Assembly: GCA_013139985.1 (NCBI GenBank)
Contig: WSZT01000246.1
Span: forward strand, 1-32,000
Direction: 5' to 3'
Source: Candidatus Methanophagales archaeon
GTDB lineage: Archaea; Halobacteriota; Syntropharchaeia; Alkanophagales; Methanospirareceae
DNA length: 32,000 nt
The number at the start of each line of letters is the position of its first letter. Position 1 is the first letter of the stretch. Below the pieces are notes generated by a model. It did not search any database and was not told the DNA's origin. It worked only from the letters and a program-made list of their open reading frames with translations. Of the stretch, positions 4,738-29,978 are shown in pieces. The position numbers and the translations under genes are program-made.

Positions 4738-5802
4738 TCAATATATAACTTCACTTAGAGAGTGTTCCTTAAGCGCCTCTTTTATCTCCCTTGATATTCG
4801 CCGACCGGTGCTCATTGGCACATCGTAGAGCAGTTGCGAATATGGCGAACCATTAATGTAGAGGTTCGTGCCCGCGACAATTCTGGCAGAAATCTCGAAT
4901 GCGATAAACTCCAGATCTTCTGTGCATACTGTCTCTATGCAGAAAGGACCGATTACGCCCGGACTGAACAGTTCCTGAGATGTTTCGATCACTTTCTGAC
5001 CCATTTCCAGTACTCGCGGTAGGAGCGACTCTCTAATTACCACTGGTAGATTGCCAGTAACCACAAATGAAGGTTCCGGATGACTATCCTGGAGGATATA
5101 CGATAGCCTGGCGATGCCATCTATGTTGGATTCATAACGGATGTCCATACTGAGGAGTTCCACCCGATCCTTTAACGGAGAATAGAAATAGTGCGGATAG
5201 AACCGGGTCCCTATTACATACTCCTGTAGTGTGAAATTCTCTTTATCGCTCAGTTCTAGTTCCTTGTGCTTCTGTTCAAACTCATTGGGATTACTTGCAA
5301 GGACATAGCCCTTCCCGCCCTTAGCACCCGGGAATTTCACTATTACTAATCGATCTATATCATTAGGGTCTTTGAATTCTCGTGGTAGTTTCAGCTCGGC
5401 ACGATCCATCCATTCTCGTTCCTTACCGCGATTGGCTTCCCAGTCCAGAACCTTTCTATTCCCGAACATGGGTACCGCGAGTTCGTTCTCGATCCTGATA
5501 GGCGAGAGATACTCCACAAATGAGCCATGCGGGATAAGAATGGCGTTTTGTGCTATCAACTTCTCTTGAAACGTTTTTTCCATGACCTGCGTGTATTTTT
5601 CGACAGTTAGTACTTCATCCGCCAACCCAAACTGCCGATAAACATCTTCTGTGCCTTCTTTGCAGATCACCATATTCTTGAAGCCTTCATCCCTAGCACC
5701 CTTAAGTATCTGGAGTGCGGTATGGCTCCCGATCGTGGCTATGGTGATCATTTTTGGGTCATAACCCTCCAGAATGCTATGGATTTCGCTTTGGTGTATC
5801 AT
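4738..5802 (-). CDS. purP: PurP-family ATP-grasp enzyme (FAICAR synthetase paralog)
   Basis: The start was moved to Met71 of the 424-aa ORF (MIHQSEIHSILEGYDPKMITIATIGSHTALQILKGA) because the longer form overlaps the upstream purP. It aligns along its length with the neighbouring paralog. Confidence 0.8.
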   Translation of the reverse strand: MIHQSEIHSILEGYDPKMITIATIGSHTALQILKGARDEGFKNMVICKEGTEDVYRQFGLADEVLTVEKYTQVMEKTFQEKLIAQNAILIPHGSFVEYLSPIRIENELAVPMFGNRKVLDWEANRGKEREWMDRAELKLPREFKDPNDIDRLVIVKFPGAKGGKGYVLASNPNEFEQKHKELELSDKENFTLQEYVIGTRFYPHYFYSPLKDRVELLSMDIRYESNIDGIARLSYILQDSHPEPSFVVTGNLPVVIRESLLPRVLEMGQKVIETSQELFSPGVIGPFCIETVCTEDLEFIAFEISARIVAGTNLYINGSPYSQLLYDVPMSTGRRISREIKEALKEHSLSEVIY

Positions 5803-5803
5803 T

Positions 5804-6931
5804 TCACGTAACCGTCTCTTCCAATCTGTTCTGTTGTATTGCTTTCCTGATTTCCATTGCCACCCGCTTGCCGACCGAAAGCGATTCGCCGTAGTAGTAG
5901 CCCGAATAGGGCGTGAACCGGGTTCCCGGCGAGCCCTGTACGCGCATGGAGATGTCAAATACAATCGCCTTTTCTGACGGTGGACCTGGTATGAACGCGG
6001 ATTGTAACGCAAAAGGCCCTATAATCCCTGGTGGATATTCCTGCCTTGCCACACGCACAAATTTCTCGCCCAAGTCGAATATCTGCTCTAATAGTGATTC
6101 CTTCACCGTGCATGATATGTGCCCGGCTTCGATTGCTTTCACATCTATGTACTTCAATGCTTCTAACTGCTGTGTTGCGGGAAGACGGAGAATGCCGTCT
6201 AAATTGGTCTGTCTCCGAGTGTCAGTCCCCAACAGTTCCAGTCGCTGGTCTAATATTGAATAGAAGTAGTTGAAGTTGGACTGCGTGCCCATAACGAATT
6301 CTTCTATTACCGCTTTCTTCAGTCCCGCCTCCGTTATCTTGCCCGCGTGAATCATCTGCTCTGAACTCTTATAGAACTCATCAGTGGAAGAAGCGAAGAA
6401 GAACGCACGTTCATACGTCCGCTGTGCTTCCGGTGCTTTAACCAGAACCAAACGGTCTATCTCCTCGGGGCTATTATAGGTCCTAGGATATGGAATTCCT
6501 CCTTTTTCCATCAGATAATACTGGTTCCTATCGGCATCTCGCTCCTCTGCTCGGAGTATGCCCCTGGTGCCAAAGAGCGGCAGCAGGAATTCATCCTCTA
6601 TCTGATCAAACCCTACGTACACCTCAAAGGAGCGGTGTGGTATGAAGATAACATTCTGTTCTCGCATTTCCTTCTGCACTCGTTCCTGTGTTATATCAGT
6701 GAAGTTATCCAGTATTATTGTCCGGTCCACTATACCAAGTGCGTCTTCCGTACGATAATACCTGGCATAGGTTTGCTCCCGGCCCTTCTGGCACACTACC
6801 AGCGTTCTGAAGCCCAGGTCCTTCGCGCCTCTGCATATATCCAATGCGGAATGTGACCCCAGAACGCCTATGGTCACCTCATTCAGGTTGTATTCATCTA
6901 AAACCGCTTTTATCTCTTCTTGTGAAATCAT
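5804..6931 (-). CDS. purP: 5-formaminoimidazole-4-carboxamide ribonucleotide (FAICAR) synthetase PurP
   Basis: MISQEEIKAVLDEYN..TIGVLGSHSALDICRGAKDLGF is the PurP N-terminal signature. AGGTG lies 6 nt upstream of the ATG at 6931. Its stop is 1 nt from the next purP start. Confidence 0.8.
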   Translation of the reverse strand: MISQEEIKAVLDEYNLNEVTIGVLGSHSALDICRGAKDLGFRTLVVCQKGREQTYARYYRTEDALGIVDRTIILDNFTDITQERVQKEMREQNVIFIPHRSFEVYVGFDQIEDEFLLPLFGTRGILRAEERDADRNQYYLMEKGGIPYPRTYNSPEEIDRLVLVKAPEAQRTYERAFFFASSTDEFYKSSEQMIHAGKITEAGLKKAVIEEFVMGTQSNFNYFYSILDQRLELLGTDTRRQTNLDGILRLPATQQLEALKYIDVKAIEAGHISCTVKESLLEQIFDLGEKFVRVARQEYPPGIIGPFALQSAFIPGPPSEKAIVFDISMRVQGSPGTRFTPYSGYYYGESLSVGKRVAMEIRKAIQQNRLEETVT

Positions 6932-7186
6932 ATGGAACACCTGTTAAATATTTGTGTTTAGTATAAAAAAACCTTTCTATCACACTTAAACTTGACTTTC
7001 GGAATTATATAAATCAAGGAAAAAGTTAACAGCACCATTTTCCCCCATCACCTTCTTTCTATTTGCCATAGGAGACATTTTAGGTATTCTGTAATCAGAA
7101 AGTTCATCTATCCTCCTTTCAAGACGCAATTTAATTCGGGAATATTTATATAACCGATTTAGTTACTTTTATGAGGAAAGACATAA

Positions 7187-10170: not shown

Positions 10171-11133
10171 ATGAGAAGAGACGTATTATTTTTGGTTCTG
10201 GTGCTTTTGATCCTTCCTGTTATGGGATCTGCAGCAGCATCAGAGTGTACTGACTGCCATAGCGGTGTTACACCGAAGATCGTTGAGGACTTCCGGAGCG
10301 GTGCGATGGGCGATGACGTTGACTGCTCAGGCTGCCATGGATCTGCCCACAACTCGGCTTTCACCGTGGGTAAGGCGGAAATGCCGACACATGAGTCCTG
10401 TGCTGCCTGTCACGCGGAGCAGGATTTTCAGTTTATGGCTGGTAAGTACAGCATCGCATGGGCTACACTATTTGCGCTACCGACAACAGGAGATCAGCCA
10501 AAAGAGCTCATGGAGGGTCAGAAGGGCTGTGGAGGTTGTCACAAGATTGGAGCAAAGAACAGCACAGGCTGGGATGCGTACGAGTACGGAACGGTAAGCT
10601 GTGATAACTGCCATACAAGACACAGCTTCTCAGTACTTGAGGCAAGAAAGCCCGAAGCCTGTCTACCATGCCATCAGGGCTTCGATCATGCTCAGTGGGA
10701 GATGTACTCGACCTCAAAGCATGGTGTGATTTACCAGACAGAGGGTGATGAGTGGGATTGGAGTGCACCTCTTAGCGATGCAGGAGAAAACTACACTGCA
10801 CCCACCTGCCAGATGTGCCACATGAAAGACGGAGACCACGCAGTGCTTACCAGTTGGGGATTCCTCGGTGTCCGGGTAGAGGAGCCGGATGAGGAATGGA
10901 TGGATGATCGGGTATCAGTACTAAAGGCATACGGTGTCCTCGATGCTGACGGGAATCCAACAGCGAGGTTCGATCCCGTGGGTCCTGCGAAGCTTGCAAG
11001 GCTCACGATGGACGACTGGAACGCCACCCGAGAGGGCATGATCGAAACATGCGGTGATTGCCATTCAGAGGAATTTGCAAGGACATCGTTAGAGGAGGGT
11101 GACCATATACTGCGAGAGTGCGACAGGATATAA
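10171..11133 (+). CDS. hao: exported octahaem cytochrome c, HAO-family-like, ending at an in-frame TAA
   Basis: Signal peptide MRRDVLFLVLVLLILPVMGSAAA and eight CxxCH motifs (CTDCH, CSGCH, CAACH, CGGCH, CDNCH, CLPCH, CQMCH, CGDCH). TAA at 11131-11133. Confidence 0.8.
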   Translation: MRRDVLFLVLVLLILPVMGSAAASECTDCHSGVTPKIVEDFRSGAMGDDVDCSGCHGSAHNSAFTVGKAEMPTHESCAACHAEQDFQFMAGKYSIAWATLFALPTTGDQPKELMEGQKGCGGCHKIGAKNSTGWDAYEYGTVSCDNCHTRHSFSVLEARKPEACLPCHQGFDHAQWEMYSTSKHGVIYQTEGDEWDWSAPLSDAGENYTAPTCQMCHMKDGDHAVLTSWGFLGVRVEEPDEEWMDDRVSVLKAYGVLDADGNPTARFDPVGPAKLARLTMDDWNATREGMIETCGDCHSEEFARTSLEEGDHILRECDRI

Positions 11134-11522
11134 TACACGGACTCAATAGAAACCGTTGCTTCTCTGTATAGGGACGGTGTGCTTCAGGAGCCCGAATATA
11201 GCGATGAACTGCCATCATATCCGTATACAGATGTTCTGAGGCTCTACGATCAGGCAACACCGATCGAGGAGGATCTCTGGCTCATGTGGATGGAGTACAG
11301 GATGCGAGCTTTCCAGAGTGCGTTCCATGCAAACCCGGATCACACACAGTGGTATGGCTGGGGACCGCTTAAGGAGACTGCAGTCAGGATAACGCAGAGG
11401 ACGCACGACTACGACTAGAGGCAGAAGCGAAAGAGAATAGTGCGAGCACACCCGGATTTAGTTTGGTCTTAGGGCTTGCAGCGATTGCCACGCTGGTTGT
11501 TATTTTAAGAAGGATGGGTTAA
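11134..11522 (+). pseudogene. hao: displaced C-terminal remainder of the hao-like gene, including a PGF-CTERM anchor
   Basis: The same frame continues open directly after the TAA (YTDSIETVASLYRDGVLQEPEY...AFHANPDHTQWYGWGPL) up to the TAG at 11416. In frame 3 (open from 11373), 11418-11522 encodes EAEAKENSASTPGFSLVLGLAAIATLVVILRRMG*. Confidence 0.7.
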
Positions 11523-13575: not shown

Positions 13576-14024
13576 ATGGTTTGGCGAAGAAGATATATAT
13601 GGGACTCCTTTGAAGAGCTAAGAAGAATGGAAGAATTGGTAGACCGAGCGTTTGGTGAGACCGGACCTGACTATTTTGGTCGGCGAGCACTGCCTGGAGC
13701 TACTGGAGAAGAACTCGCAGAGACCGCAGCACCCTATGTAGATATAAAGGAGAAAGAAGGCAAGATTATTGTAGCCGCCGATATACCTGGCGTTGAAAAG
13801 GGCGACATCTCTATAAATATCAGGGGTGATACGCTCGAAATAAGTGCGGAGAAGAAAGAGGAAAAGGAAGAAGAGGAAGAAGTTATAAAAAGTTCTACCG
13901 GTCTATACCGCTGCCCACGGAGGTGGACAAGGATAATGTGGATGCAACTTTCGAGAATGGCGTACTCCAGATAGAGATGCCGAAGCTAGCAATAGAAGAA
14001 GTGAAGAAGATCGAGCTAAAATAA
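13576..14024 (+). pseudogene. hsp20: Hsp20/alpha-crystallin small heat-shock protein, frameshifted
   Basis: Frame 1 reads ...PYVDIKEKEGKIIVAADIPGVEKGDISINIRGDTLEISAEKKEEKEEEEE. Frame 3 then reads SYKKFYRSIPLPTEVDKDNVDATFENGVLQIEMPKLAIEEVKKIELK*. The shift lies in the GA-rich tract at about 13850-13885. Confidence 0.75.
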
Positions 14025-25372: not shown

Positions 25373-26245
25373 TCATTGCTCCGTACCTTCAAATAAAACC
25401 CGCAGCAAGTCTCTATCAATAAGCATGCCGGTCAATTTACCCCGTGCGGAAATAATAGGAAGCTGGTCAAATTTGCTCTCACTCATCTTCCTTGCGCAAT
25501 CACTCACCTCGCTATTACGCGTTACTGTAATCACATCCTTTACCAATACCTCCTTCACATGCTTATCCGGTAATTTTATCTTTGATACGTCATAATACAA
25601 TCTCATCGTGTCCCGCATCCCTTCCCAGGTCCATGCATCCTCGTCCGAGCCCAAAGATAAGTCGGATTGTTCTGTTGTATCCTCTATCACCGATACATTT
25701 ATCAAATCCAGGTCGGTTATCAGCCCAACCAATTCAAGCTCCAAATTTAGCACTGGCGCTGCTTTTACCCGTGCAAGCTCCATTATTCTACCCACAACAG
25801 ATAGCGGCATCTCGTCCCATACCGCCATAGTAGTATCCCCTATGTAATTCTCTATGGACTCTTTATAGTCTCTCTTCGCAATTTCTCTAATGAGATCAGC
25901 AATAGATATAAGCCCTACGAGCTTTTCACCTACCACCACGGGCAAACGACGTATTCCATGCGAATGGATAATCTCCGCCGCTTCTGCAATGGTCGCTTCC
26001 GGACTGATTATAATCGGATTTCTGTGCATCAGTAGCGCTATTTGATCCTCATCGCGATTTCTTAGCACGTCTTGTCTTGTAACTACACCCACTACTTGCC
26101 CTTCTTTAAGAACCGGAACCCCGGAGATGCGTTTGCTCTTGCATACCTCCATCAACTGCTCTCTCGTTCCCGGGACTGTAACGTAAGCGACATCATCTAC
26201 CATTACATCCCTTACTTTTGTCCCTTCGCTTTCTTTCCCTTTCAT
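25373..26245 (-). CDS. four-CBS-domain protein
   Basis: 290 aa with four recognisable CBS repeats (..ISGVPVLKEGQVVGVVTRQDVL.., ..IRRLPVVVGEKLVGLISIADL.., ..AAPVLNLELELVGLITDLDL.., ..FDQLPIISARGKLTGMLIDRDLL..). Confidence 0.8.
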   Translation of the reverse strand: MKGKESEGTKVRDVMVDDVAYVTVPGTREQLMEVCKSKRISGVPVLKEGQVVGVVTRQDVLRNRDEDQIALLMHRNPIIISPEATIAEAAEIIHSHGIRRLPVVVGEKLVGLISIADLIREIAKRDYKESIENYIGDTTMAVWDEMPLSVVGRIMELARVKAAPVLNLELELVGLITDLDLINVSVIEDTTEQSDLSLGSDEDAWTWEGMRDTMRLYYDVSKIKLPDKHVKEVLVKDVITVTRNSEVSDCARKMSESKFDQLPIISARGKLTGMLIDRDLLRVLFEGTEQ

Positions 26246-26269
26246 CTCATCATTATTTTCTAAACACTA

Positions 26270-26659
26270 TTATTTTACATCTACCTTGTATTTACCATCA
26301 TAGACTAAAAAAGATATCTCCTTGCCCTGTTCAATTCGGCCCTTCTCCAGCAAATCCGCAGGTATCTTGATTTCTGTGGTCGTGTAGTCTTCCAGATCCA
26401 TAATTTGCGCAGTATCTCCCAAAACAGAGAGTATCTGGCCATTCTTTCGCTCTATTACAGGCACGTAAATCTTCGCAGTAACCGGCTGAATCGCTGTTCT
26501 TTTTTGTGAATCAAAGACACCAATCCCTTCTATCCTCGCTTTTGCTGCCCCATGCTTTCCTGGCTTTGATGTAGACATGTTCACTATCGTGCACGGTTCC
26601 TCATCTAAAATAACATATTTCCCTTCCTTTAAAGTCCTTACCTCTGTTAGCCCCTTCAT
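26270..26659 (-). CDS. eif5a: translation initiation factor 5A (aIF5A)
   Basis: The hypusine loop STSKPGKHGAAKA. 129 aa. Confidence 0.9.
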   Translation of the reverse strand: MKGLTEVRTLKEGKYVILDEEPCTIVNMSTSKPGKHGAAKARIEGIGVFDSQKRTAIQPVTAKIYVPVIERKNGQILSVLGDTAQIMDLEDYTTTEIKIPADLLEKGRIEQGKEISFLVYDGKYKVDVK

Positions 26660-26875
26660 ATTTATGTCATAACCTCCCTTCCCCCTTCTTTCGGATATTT
26701 TCTCTTCATTTTCTCTTTTTTAAATATTATGCACACGACAAGTTTATAAATACCAGAGACATATCCTCAATTGTTGCAATCGAAGAGAGATGAACAAGAT
26801 TCATTTTCGCCTTAGCTGTGAGAAATCATAAATCCTAAACACCAAATTCTAATATCTAAACCAGAAATTCAAAAT

Positions 26876-27174
26876 TTGCGACTAATCTTATCGGGATTCT
26901 TCGCTGGCTCTGAAACTGCACTGATTAGGATAGGGTGGATAAAAGCATGATCTTTGCGTGAAAAGGGCGTGGAAGGAGCTAAGACCGTCCAGAAGCTGGT
27001 GGATGATCCCAAAGCTTTGCTCACAACGATAAATATTTGGAATAATATAGTAAAGTCCCTATTGCTATTGTCGTGGACAAAGAAGGGATAACACATGGTT
27101 TGGTTAGCTCAAAGGACCTTTCAGAGGGAACAGTATGGGCTATAAATGATGAATACAACTATAATACACCATGA
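26876..27174 (+). pseudogene. remnant of a DUF21(CNNM)-CBS hemolysin/CorC-like gene
   Basis: LRLILSGFFAGSETALIRIGWIKA*SLREKGVEGAKTVQKLVDDPKALLTTINIWNNIV is a DUF21 core with an in-frame TGA at 26948. A frame change at about 27058 leads to PIAIVVDKEGITHGLVSSKDLSEG, the end of a CBS domain. Most of the gene is deleted. Confidence 0.55.
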
Positions 27175-27404
27175 GAAAAATTAAAGGCATGGAAAAATTA
27201 TAAGGGCTCTGATTAGAGCATGTAGTAAGCAAATTACAAACTCACTTCTTATACCTCATCTTCTTCCGCCTTTTCTTCAACTTATGCTTTCGCATCTTTG
27301 CTACCTTTCTCTTCTTTCCGCAGGGAATTTGTAATCACCACCTTTCATATCTTTTACTCATACCTTTTTAATTAGATAAATATAAATGTTAGGGTGGAGA
27401 TGAG

Positions 27405-27998
27405 ATGGGTAGAATAGAGCGAGCACCGGGTTGGATACTGAAATACAAGGGAAGGATAGAGCAAGGGGCCGTAACGGTGGAGGCTATTTTAGAGGAGGAG
27501 AACAAGCTAAGGGCAGAGCCAATAAAGATATCATCGGTGACGAGAGCGATAAATGCGATGGGCTGCCCAATCACAGGACTACGAAGAGAGAAACAGGTTG
27601 GCGTAGATAGAACGAAAGCGGACGGAGAAGCGGGGCGATCAATTGAAAAGGGATCTGAGGGAATAGTAGGCGGACCGGATTGGCTGCAGAAATACCGTGA
27701 ACGGATAGAGAAAAAAGCGATAACGGTGGAAGACATTTTAGAGGAAGAGAACAAGCTAAGAGAACAGCCGATAAAACTGTCAACCGTGACGAGAGCGGTA
27801 AATACAATGGGTTATCCAATTACTGAGTTGCGAAGGGGGAAGAAATCAGAACAAGGGGCAGCAGTAGGTGGCGGGGAGAAGAGCGAGGGCGAAGCGATAA
27901 AAACGAGATCTGAGCGAACAGGGAGTGGGCCAGGGTGGCTGCAGAAATACCGTGAACGGATAGAGAACGGTACGATAATGGTGGAGGGCATTTTATAG
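27405..27998 (+). CDS. tandem-repeat protein, modules 1-3a, ending at an in-frame TAG
   Basis: GGTGGA lies 6 nt upstream of the ATG. The repeated module is GW(I/L)(L/Q)KY..RIE....V(E)(A/D/G)ILEEENK(L/I)R.(E/Q)PIK(I/L)S(S/T)VTRA(I/V)N(A/T)MG(C/Y)PI..LR. TAG at 27996-27998. Confidence 0.6.
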   Translation: MGRIERAPGWILKYKGRIEQGAVTVEAILEEENKLRAEPIKISSVTRAINAMGCPITGLRREKQVGVDRTKADGEAGRSIEKGSEGIVGGPDWLQKYRERIEKKAITVEDILEEENKLREQPIKLSTVTRAVNTMGYPITELRRGKKSEQGAAVGGGEKSEGEAIKTRSERTGSGPGWLQKYRERIENGTIMVEGIL

Positions 27999-28331
27999 GA
28001 AGAAAACAAAATAAGGGGCGAGCCGATAAAGATCTCTTCGGTGACGAGAGCGGTAAATGCAATGGGTTATCCAATTGTTGGCTTGCGAAGGGGAGTAAAA
28101 GCGGAAGCTGAAGCGAAAGCTAAAAAGTCCTTTAAACAGGGCGAAGAGCCTGGGAAGATGGAGAAAGGGCCAGGGTGGCTGCAGAAATACCGTGAACGGA
28201 TAGAGAACGGTACGATAATGGTGGAGGGCATTTTAGAGGAAGAAAACAAAATAAGGGGCGAGCCGATAAAGATCTCTTCGGTGACGAGAGCGGTAAATGC
28301 AATGGGTTATCCAATTGTTGGCTTGCGAAAA
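27426..28331 (+). repeat. four tandem coding modules (27426-27587, 27675-27836, 27930-28091, 28170-28331), periods 249/255/240 bp
   Basis: 27927-28089 equals 28167-28329 (163 bp) apart from T27996 versus G28236. Modules 1 and 2 are more diverged. Confidence 0.9.
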
Positions 28332-28571
28332 GAGCGGAAGGGCGAAGTTAAAAAATCGGAAAAGTCAAAGAAGTTAGCTGGTACCATAGAACCTCAATAT
28401 TTTGGTATTGACAAAATATCGGAAGAGACGGAGAAGCGATTTATATCAATCAAGAAGAGCTGGGAGGAAGAGTTAGGTAAATCCTTGAATAACGACTATT
28501 TTGTAAATGTACTCATTGCATTAGCAAAGCTCGTTGAGTATGGGAAAACACTTACGCCAGTGGTAAGCTAA
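28041..28571 (+). CDS. same-frame continuation of the repeat protein (module 3b, module 4, unique C-terminal domain)
   Basis: Frame 3 is identical on both sides of the TAG. The listed GTG start lies inside module 3, so an independent start is unlikely. Confidence 0.4.
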   Translation: MTRAVNAMGYPIVGLRRGVKAEAEAKAKKSFKQGEEPGKMEKGPGWLQKYRERIENGTIMVEGILEEENKIRGEPIKISSVTRAVNAMGYPIVGLRKERKGEVKKSEKSKKLAGTIEPQYFGIDKISEETEKRFISIKKSWEEELGKSLNNDYFVNVLIALAKLVEYGKTLTPVVS

Positions 28572-28601
28572 GCGAAAATAAAGTAAAATAAAGTAAAGGA
28601 A

Positions 28602-29486
28602 ATGAAGATAATGGTGGCAGAGTATGCCGTTGGTAAAGGTGGGGGCAAATTAGTAGCGGAAGGAAAAGCGATGCTAACAACGCTAAAAAATGGCTTTTAT
28701 GAGTTAGGACATGAAGTTATCTATCCTGAGGCCGTAACTGATTTCGGAGTGGCAGTGGATAAGCTATCAAAGGAAAGTGACGCAGGCGTCGTTATCGCCC
28801 CCGACGATATGCTATGCGAGTTTACAAAGCTCCTAGAATCGAATACTGTCAATTTGGGCTGCTCTTCGGATTCTGTTAAAATCTGTGCCGACAAGAAGCA
28901 GACAATAAAGGTATTAAGCGAGGGGGGGATACAGGTGCCGAGAATTGTGTCAAAGGAAGAGGTGGCGAGTGAGCAGAGATACGTGAAGAAGCCGAGATAT
29001 GGGTGTGCATCGGAAAACGTCTTCATACAGAAGGGCAAAGATATATGCCCCACGCCAGACCATATTATAACGGAATTTATAGATGGTGAGGATATAAGCA
29101 GCAGTGTAATAATCGGTAAATTTTCGGTGCTGCCTCTGACGATAAACAAGCAATTTATAAGAGTTGATGGCGAAAGGCTACGATATGGTGGGGGATTAGT
29201 GCCTTATTCCGTAGAGCAAGAAGCCGAGAGCGAGATAATGCGCATGAGTGAGAAGGTGGTAACCCTGCTTCACTGTGAGGGCTATGTGGGAATAGATTTC
29301 ATATTGGGTGATGATGGGAGTGCCCATGTGGTAGAGGTAAATCCTAGACCTACAACATCCATTGTAGGTATAGCGAAAGTATTAAATTATAACGTAGCCG
29401 ATTTGATTTTAAGAGCGAAATTTGGATCTTTACCTATGCCCAATGAAGTTAAAACCGAAGGATCGTTTATCTTTGAACTCTCTTAG
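28602..29486 (+). CDS. mfnD: ATP-grasp tyramine--L-glutamate ligase (methanofuran biosynthesis), MfnD-like
   Basis: IAPDD...NLGCSSDSVKICADKKQT, EFIDGEDISSSVI, GYVGIDFIL....HVVEVNPRPTTS. This is the same pattern I recall for MJ0815. Confidence 0.7.
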   Translation: MKIMVAEYAVGKGGGKLVAEGKAMLTTLKNGFYELGHEVIYPEAVTDFGVAVDKLSKESDAGVVIAPDDMLCEFTKLLESNTVNLGCSSDSVKICADKKQTIKVLSEGGIQVPRIVSKEEVASEQRYVKKPRYGCASENVFIQKGKDICPTPDHIITEFIDGEDISSSVIIGKFSVLPLTINKQFIRVDGERLRYGGGLVPYSVEQEAESEIMRMSEKVVTLLHCEGYVGIDFILGDDGSAHVVEVNPRPTTSIVGIAKVLNYNVADLILRAKFGSLPMPNEVKTEGSFIFELS

Positions 29487-29546: not shown

Positions 29547-29978
29547 ATGCATAAAAAACGAATGATTGCAAGCATAGCGAAAGATGTCCTGGATCTTATC
29601 ATGGAAGTAAGCAAATATAATCATCCGAAAGAGTTTATCGGGCTGTTGTGCGCTGAGGATGACCTCATAACCGACGTTTTATTCCTCCCCGGCACTATTT
29701 CATCCGGTGAGAATGCAATTATACGATTGGATATGCTACCAATGGGTCTTAGCTACATAGGGTCTGTTCATAGTCATCCGCACCTGACAGTTATGAAACC
29801 GTCAGAACAAGATCTTTTTATGTTCTCTAAGACAGGAGACTGTCATATTATCTCTTTTTACCCATACGAAGAGCACAGTTGGAGATGTTATAATTCGAGG
29901 GGGGAGGGGAGAGAACTAGAAATAGTGGAGCGAGATACAAACGAGTTAGAAGTGGGCGAAGAATGGTACGAATTTTAG
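29547..29978 (+). CDS. JAB/MPN (JAMM) metalloprotease-family protein
   Basis: EFIGLL..., GSVHSHPHLTVMKPSEQD (the HxHx7Sx2D JAMM motif). Confidence 0.75.
   Translation: MHKKRMIASIAKDVLDLIMEVSKYNHPKEFIGLLCAEDDLITDVLFLPGTISSGENAIIRLDMLPMGLSYIGSVHSHPHLTVMKPSEQDLFMFSKTGDCHIISFYPYEEHSWRCYNSRGEGRELEIVERDTNELEVGEEWYEF

Follow-up and report, generated by a model that had tools for sequence, protein, structure and literature searches.

What does an in-frame TAG mean in a gene that otherwise reads as four copies of one small protein module, and what might such a protein do? The question is raised by a tandem-repeat gene of a Candidatus Methanophagales archaeon, known from a metagenome-assembled genome (MAG; assembly GCA_013139985.1, contig WSZT01000246.1), of which we analyzed positions 1 to 32,000, here called the window. 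Translation and repeat searches bore out the layout proposed in the initial annotation: one reading frame with a TAG at 27996, four modules of about 55 amino acids (aa), linkers between them, and a unique C-terminal part of 79 aa when linker 4 is counted in (Table 1). The repeat search placed four copies of a 163-nucleotide (nt) unit in register, starting at 27423, 27672, 27927 and 28167, with identities to copy 3 of 74, 81, 100 and 99% for copies 1 to 4. Copies 3 and 4 differ, as had been noted, by a single mismatch, T27996 versus G28236. Tandem Repeats Finder reported a 240-nt period across 27681–28329 (score 724). In GenBank the gene is split, the first 197 aa being annotated as a separate hypothetical protein (NOR79157.1, GQ523_12290). 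Our comparisons show that there is nothing special about this TAG in a supposedly new duplication: it is a private lesion or error of one MAG, lying inside an old, homogenising repeat.

The homology search returned 142 relatives; the counts below refer to the best 120 of these, all of which were intact and without the stop. The architecture lies far beyond chance, since it recurred in these 120 proteins and at 55 loci of separate GTDB species genomes. The stop lies in helix 2 of module 3, on the first Glu of a conserved ILEEEN, and several homologues of 387–388 aa, 95–99% identical to the read-through product, carry Glu at this position (198). At the DNA level, 27996 was G, giving GAG, in four independent ENA assemblies that carry the intact 388-aa orthologue (P0001). 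These assemblies were about 99.3% identical to the window, and their gene differed from it at 4 of 1167 bases, that is, at three besides 27996. The TAG is private to this assembly. It represents a G-to-T change in a conserved Glu codon, for which a consensus or sequencing error and a very recent strain-specific null allele are about equally likely origins. The initial annotation had named a G at 27996, in an ordinary intact repeat protein, as the finding that would overturn its view of the locus; such a G was found in every relative examined, though not for the MAG's own reads. A 36-mer with the TAG allele had no exact match in Joint Genome Institute (JGI) metagenome contigs, a test without power since the wild-type 36-mer itself occurred there only once.

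An error or a recent null allele is a likely cause also because the window holds two more broken conserved genes. In a gene for an HAO-like multihaem cytochrome (10171–11418, plus strand), an extra TAA codon at 11131–11133 apparently arose from a tandem ATA duplication (ATA-TAA-TAC versus ATA-TAC in homologues); homologues of 400–480 aa read through that point, and one of the matches (P0319) simply lacks the codon. The closest full-length relative of this cytochrome is 82% identical and labelled Syntropharchaeales. No full-length match at 99% was found for it among anaerobic methanotrophic archaea of the group ANME-1, and a 289-aa fragment (P0332) was 100% identical over 63% of the query. The second gene, for a small heat-shock protein (13576–14020, plus strand), has a frameshift near 13880, in a purine-rich GAAGAAGAGGAAGAAG run, and the HSP20 domain is complete again (profile positions 1–100 of 102) when its two frames are joined. 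Such a count, three lesions in 34 reading frames, suggests a poor consensus or a population in unusual decay.

That the TAG is a consensus error of sequencing or assembly in a short-read MAG, the gene being intact in the organism itself, has an even chance of being correct. All relatives have GAG; the repeat breaks assemblies, so that in 16 of the 55 species loci the contig stops within the gene (L050–L059, L062 and L078 are among such loci), as does the single JGI contig that contains the wild-type 36-mer; and two further gene-disrupting lesions lie in the window. An assembly or sequence problem, one of the two explanations first offered for the stop, is still live. It must be set against the differences from relatives that surround the TAG, which resemble genuine strain variation.

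A real, recent, strain-specific nonsense mutation falls a little short of an even chance. It would leave a fresh pseudogene, or a 197-aa product with modules 1–2, half of module 3 and no tail, with possible effects on downstream expression. The MAG represents a distinct strain, about 0.5–0.7% divergent, and because it is genuinely different a real single-nucleotide polymorphism at 27996 is possible. Compared with strain L002 over 6.2 kb, the window showed 40 differing alignment positions (30 substitutions and one 10-bp indel), and the coding changes were mostly synonymous, the TAG being the sole disruptive one. This natural pattern favors a real mutation, as do the different lesion types in the two other broken genes and a frameshift in the same repeat gene in the genome of another species (L060). 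However, no other assembly shares the allele, and purifying selection acts on the family, whose 120 homologues are otherwise intact. A poor consensus would explain three broken genes in 34 reading frames equally well, and the lesion sits in the internal repeat of 163 nt, the kind of place in which a consensus called from short reads is least to be trusted.

Some Methanosarcinales, relatives of these archaea, decode TAG as pyrrolysine. Like the pyrrolysine TAG of methanogen methyltransferase genes, the codon considered here lies in frame within an otherwise conserved archaeal gene, and the frame stays open and conserved beyond it. Unlike in those genes, the orthologous codon is GAG in all relatives, encoding Glu at a conserved helix position, and the paralogous codon of module 4 is GAG as well. 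Within the window TAG is an ordinary terminator that closes 6 of the 34 other reading frames counted as genes, the two genes next downstream among them, with several of these stops soon trailed by more, so that a special recoding signal is very unlikely and decoding of the TAG, as pyrrolysine or by programmed read-through to the full 388-aa protein, is scarcely credible. No pyl genes were found within the 32-kb window.

The other explanation first offered for the stop was that modules 3 and 4 are the newest duplication of an expanding array and that this duplication coincided with the nonsense mutation. The comparison of orthologues does not sustain it. Modules 3 and 4 share 0.80–1.00 identity within the proteins of most four-module lineages, even where the whole proteins are only 55–60% identical, and in some lineages it is modules 2 and 3 that form the near-identical pair. 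Since the near-identity is common to all close orthologues and recurs in divergent species, it does not record a single fresh duplication in this genome. Between divergent proteins, the first modules were 0.72 identical to each other, versus 0.59–0.67 for every other pairing (0.59–0.62 for module 1 against other modules). In 51 of the 61 four-module proteins, module 3 resembled module 4 of the same protein more closely than it did any module from a divergent homologue, and the paralogous sites 28017 and 28257 in modules 3 and 4 change together between 99%-identical strains. As judged from these sequence comparisons, the internal modules evolve in concert, through gene conversion or unit turnover, with gain and loss by recombination between copies. 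The array is old, and modules 3 and 4 are nearly identical because the internal copies are homogenised by recombination. The TAG thus serves as a caution on the consensus quality of this MAG, not as a sign of recoding or of a joint origin of duplication and nonsense mutation.

In transcription activator-like (TAL) effector repeats and bacterial surface-protein repeats, too, adjacent coding repeats are nearly identical at the DNA level within a genome and diverged between species, and copy number shifts by whole units. The present array differs from them in having 55-aa modules that are predicted to fold, with unique linkers between them, and a first module that escapes homogenisation. The unique linkers would confine the homogenisation tracts (163 nt) to the module.

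Across the family, module number varied from 1 to 5. Four modules were counted in 63 of the 120 homologues, three in 55 and five in 2, and complete genes at the 55 species loci had four, three, two or one modules in roughly 20, 12, 9 and 1 loci; the MAG-derived counts are unreliable and need long-read confirmation because the internal repeat breaks short-read assemblies. It is highly improbable that the array described here is an assembly expansion of a gene with three modules. Versions that are 97–99% identical and lack exactly one 240-nt unit do exist (P0014, P0017, P0018 and L016), but at least seven four-module sequences from independent assemblies contain linker 3, and no two of the linkers flanking modules 3 and 4 are alike. 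That linker 3 is unique and has its only possible place between two module copies argues for a real four-module form. The near-identical three-copy forms are more likely to be unequal-crossover deletions or assembly collapses.

Ratios of nonsynonymous to synonymous substitution (dN/dS) were 0.09–0.3 for the modules in 9 of the 10 computable comparisons and 0.59 in the remaining one; for the tail they were mostly 0.06–0.35, reaching 0.54. In the eight more divergent of 11 comparisons, dN in the linkers was about 3–5-fold above that in the modules. By these measures, the repeat gene is real and under purifying selection in the family.

We then considered what the modules and the tail may be. AlphaFold2, run on the family alignment, predicted four three-helix modules with predicted local distance difference test (pLDDT) values of 80–90, linkers below 50, and a tail of two helices at about 85. 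For the single module, modelled from 44 diverse modules, it gave helices at 5–16, 21–31 and 38–47 and no strand (mean pLDDT 87.7, predicted template modelling score 0.73). The module is thus predicted to be an all-helical, helix-turn-helix (HTH)-like bundle without a wing, which departs from the winged-helix-like unit with short strands that had been suggested. Its invariant residues are Pro4, Trp6, Tyr10, Glu28, Arg32, Lys37, Arg43 and Asn46, of which Arg32, Lys37, Arg43 and Asn46 are spread over the end of helix 2, the loop and helix 3. The protein has an isoelectric point of 9.4, with net positive modules and a net negative tail. Overall, it is predicted to be a basic, beads-on-a-string chain, in which a conserved N-terminal module and 0–4 further copies are joined by disordered linkers and closed by a two-helix hairpin.

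The strand-helix-helix look attributed to the tail also gave way, to two helices. A ribbon-helix-helix (RHH) fold was rejected because no strand was predicted, although a strand that forms only in a dimer may escape a monomer model, and because hhalign of the tail profile against NikR/CopG/Arc gave a probability of 0.1%, with an RHH profile composed partly by hand. Pfam RHH families had no match for the tail alone, and PutA RHH appeared in only 3 of 61 whole proteins, among repeat-summed noise. The tail resembles CopG, Arc, MetJ and NikR in having two helices after a short conserved SSIGKIS of alternating polarity, at the end of a putative DNA-binding protein; it differs from them in lacking profile similarity, a Pfam RHH match and a predicted strand. 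A clean tail profile likewise showed no similarity to the module (hhalign probability 0.1%).

In agreement with the initial annotation, which could place neither part in a known family, module and tail had no credible match in Pfam, NCBIfam, PDB or Foldseek searches. The single module had no Pfam match; sub-threshold matches were scattered over the 44 single modules, with EAD11 in 8 and GntR in 5. NCBIfam gave nothing credible, only a sub-threshold TonB match. A PDB profile search with the whole family found no match, and the one PDB match of the module profile, a Girdin peptide (E 0.75), was judged to be due to chance. Foldseek found nothing significant (best E 4.2 in PDB and 0.89 in BFVD); the non-significant neighbors included the DNA-binding helical domains GcrA, the Timeless DNA-binding repeat and Slx4 CCD. 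With the full-length model all PDB matches had E >1, the disordered linkers making global superposition meaningless, and the weak neighbors included sigma factors and the SETMAR/Mos1 DNA-binding domains. No known HTH family showed significant sequence or fold similarity to the module, and a literature search on ANME-1 and helix-turn-helix returned no paper describing this protein.

Whole-protein Pfam matches to 61 unrelated families (DUF3400, EAD11, DUF1902, GntR, FrmR-like and others) were rejected as sums of weak repeat matches. Among these, DUF1902, the N-terminal domain of HicB-like antitoxins, exceeded its family cutoff (27.7 bits versus 22) and goes with the label "predicted RNase H-like HicB family nuclease" given by some pipelines, but the match covers only profile positions 32–66 of 74 (35 positions), in module 2, and a single module gives none. 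The DUF1902 fold is a mixed helix-and-strand one, unlike the predicted all-helical module. Also comparable are tandem HTH or tri-helical DNA-binding arrays such as Myb R2R3, the paired/Tc3 bipartite HTH and multi-HTH sigma factors, which also have several small three-helix units per chain, conserved basic or polar residues on the third helix, and flexible connections for multi-site contact. Compared with these, the present protein has no significant match, a longer loop between helices 2 and 3, disordered linkers of 25–30 aa instead of short ones, internal copies homogenised per genome, and a copy number of 1–5 between species.

When we examined the distribution of the family, nearly all of the 120 homologues were labelled ANME-1, Methanophagales, Methanospirareceae or Syntrophoarchaeum, and the gene was present in all 55 Methanophagales-type species genomes retrieved. 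A HMMER search over 1.84 billion representative proteins matched only 33 clusters. On this sequence record, the family is restricted to ANME-1/Methanophagales and a few related archaea. Two apparent matches (P0133, 4853 aa, and P0152) were dismissed as low-complexity coiled-coil repeats. Beyond the multi-module forms, two relatives of 141–142 aa (P0129 and P0132) consist of one module and the tail; two more (P0142 and P0144) have a divergent module and the tail, the module stretch reading like a classical HTH; P0145 and P0147 join a module to a Cys-rich, zinc-ribbon-like segment; and P0140 is an HTH and LAGLIDADG_3 endonuclease-like protein with a module at its end. These architectures favor a nucleic-acid-binding role. 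The gene for P0140 (L075, 2397–3368) lies inside a polysaccharide-biosynthesis gene cluster, and that for P0144 (L077) lies among small unknown genes with a C2H2 zinc-finger protein, in a stretch that resembles a mobile element or virus. Ten IMG/VR matches, examined as viral relatives, were P2-like phage capsid proteins sharing only the chance string GPGWLQKYRE, and tblastn against GenBank phages found no match.

The repeat gene keeps a constant slot between a tiny eL41-like open reading frame (ORF) beside aIF5A and an ATP-grasp ligase gene. At every one of the 46 species loci long enough to show it, the ligase gene starts 0–35 nt after the repeat gene, in places with its start codon overlapping the stop codon of the repeat gene, and the wider gene string is kept in divergent loci (L005–L008). 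The single-module relative P0129 (L074) lies 24 nt upstream of an orthologous ligase gene (49% identity) in an otherwise unrelated neighborhood, which argues for a functional pair.

Given these results, our best reading is that the protein is a multivalent DNA-binding regulator or architectural protein of ANME-1, to which we give about equal chances of being right and wrong. Each module would contact nucleic acid, most likely DNA, through the loop and the third helix (Arg32, Lys37, Arg43 and Asn46); the flexible linkers would let several modules engage neighboring sites; and the tail would oligomerise the protein. Such a protein could regulate or organise transcription in a multivalent manner, plausibly that of its own operon, and would probably be co-expressed with the downstream ATP-grasp ligase gene and possibly control it. 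DNA binding is suggested by the basic modules and acidic tail, by the conserved basic and polar residues placed on the loop and helix 3, where an HTH would meet DNA, by the HTH-like and fused relatives (P0142 and P0144; LAGLIDADG-like and zinc-ribbon-like parts), and by the weak structural neighbors, which are DNA-binding helical domains. The first proposal for this locus, that the module is a small nucleic-acid-binding unit, is plausible. Some points weigh against DNA binding. The loop that joins helices 2 and 3 has 6 residues, more than a classical HTH turn, and the analysis yielded no candidate binding sites. Oligomerisation by the tail is proposed from its predicted amphipathic hairpin. 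As for the ligase, no ATP-grasp gene adjoins the single-module relatives P0132 and P0144, and ATP-grasp orthologues of outgroups have no repeat-gene partner, so that the link could be conserved gene order in a housekeeping region.

The same adjacency could point to a different role, in which the modules are protein–protein adaptors and the protein is a scaffold or partner of the ATP-grasp ligase, perhaps also of the JAB protease, with several identical docking units; we regard this as unlikely. The tight and universal adjacency to the ATP-grasp gene and the pairing kept in a different context in L074 speak for it, together with recurrent sub-threshold matches to EAD11, a helical adaptor domain, in the single modules mentioned above and in 34 of 61 whole proteins. 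The best single-module match (E 0.0033) is nevertheless below the gathering score of 26 bits, the low whole-protein E values are four weak matches summed, and the same proteins match 60 other unrelated families in this way. In addition, the modules are basic, with conserved Arg, Lys and Asn where an HTH contacts DNA, relatives are fused to nuclease and zinc-ribbon-like parts, and some lack an ATP-grasp neighbor.

Extending the DNA-binding reading further, the family may represent an undescribed archaeal class of DNA-binding proteins in the ANME-1 core genome: one to five novel three-helix modules, their number tuned by recombination and the copies kept identical by gene conversion, acting as a multivalent regulator or chromatin-like organiser coupled to an MfnD-like ligase, possibly in methanofuran biosynthesis. 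We put this forward tentatively, as rather doubtful in its entirety.

Table 1. Coordinates of the repeat gene, its parts and adjoining features in the window.
Feature	Position	Strand	Remarks
Whole repeat gene	27405..28571	+	388 sense codons and terminal TAA; one internal TAG at codon 198
Module 1	27423..27587	+	aa 7-61; signature WILKYK; only module with family-wide positional orthology
Linker 1	27588..27671	+	28 aa, Gly/Glu/Lys-rich; predicted disordered (pLDDT <50, residues 63-87)
Module 2	27672..27836	+	aa 90-144
Linker 2	27837..27926	+	30 aa; predicted disordered
Module 3	27927..28091	+	aa 175-229; holds the in-frame TAG
In-frame TAG, codon 198	27996..27998	+	four independent assemblies read GAG (Glu) here; paralogous codon at 28236 also GAG
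Linker 3	28092..28166	+	25 aa, unique sequence; in all 387-388-aa orthologues, missing from 307-308-aa forms
Module 4	28167..28331	+	aa 255-309; one base off module 3 over 163 nt
Linker 4	28332..28409	+	26 aa, Lys-rich
C-terminal tail	28410..28568	+	aa 336-388; amphipathic helices 340-357 and 363-378; motif F..IKKSWE..LGK.L.NDYF.N.LLALAKL
A/T-rich box TTTTTAATTAGATAAATATAAAT, then Shine-Dalgarno-like GGGTGGAG 5 nt before ATG	27365..27399	+	read from sequence; orthologous loci similarly laid out
ATP-grasp ligase gene	28602..29486	+	Pfam ATP-grasp_3; best NCBIfam match MfnD (tyramine-glutamate ligase), 127 bits vs cutoff 400
JAB/MPN metalloprotease gene	29547..29978	+	next in the conserved gene string, 44/46 loci

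The segment just upstream of the repeat gene is likely to comprise its promoter and ribosome-binding region (Table 1). A sigma-70 promoter scan gave no match, its model not being applicable to archaea, and an Rfam scan of 26000–29000 gave none either. Farther upstream, within the 745-nt intergenic region, the stretch 27015–27170 is replaced or shortened in strains L001, L003 and L004 and retained in L002. A 75-aa ORF that is probably spurious (26869–27096, minus strand) and a 17–19-nt imperfect direct repeat (27170–27205) overlap this stretch. Downstream, the 30 nt that separate the repeat gene from the ATP-grasp gene contain 2.3 copies of a 10-nt tandem repeat, AAAATAAAGT, at 28575–28597. The length of this spacer is polymorphic, strain L002 being one unit shorter by the 10-bp indel.

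The contig proteins around the repeat gene are NOR79154–NOR79160. On the minus strand upstream lie genes for glycyl-tRNA synthetase, a CBS-domain protein and aIF5A, and on the plus strand downstream those for the ATP-grasp ligase, the JAB/MPN protease, a RibL-like nucleotidyltransferase, NikR and proteasome beta. The unannotated tiny ORF beside aIF5A (27242–27328, minus strand) encodes (I)PCGKKRKVAKMRKHKLKKRRKKMRYKK*, with a Shine-Dalgarno-like GGTGGTGAT at 27334–27342 and a terminator-like hairpin at 27206–27219. Its amino-acid sequence is conserved across 21 distinct ANME-1 loci, in each of which the ORF and the repeat gene are divergently oriented. The conserved stretch reaches upstream of its only ATG and an ATT lies 5 nt after the Shine-Dalgarno-like sequence, suggesting a non-ATG start. 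The peptide looks like ribosomal protein eL41 or basic peptides of the COX24_C/bS22 type, with a Pfam match of only E 0.25. Elsewhere in the window, 4738–6940 (minus strand) holds two adjacent paralogous purP-like genes (ATP-grasp, FAICAR-synthetase-type), the second of which, as a mechanical ORF, extends far upstream and overlaps the first.

Taken together, the gene family is of greater interest than the stop codon that drew attention to it: it is under purifying selection, yet has no entry in Pfam, NCBIfam or PDB. Should the protein prove to bind DNA, uncultured archaea that control marine methane flux would have in it a regulator or architectural protein specific to their lineage, and its folded module would also provide a clean natural case of copy-number change combined with concerted evolution.

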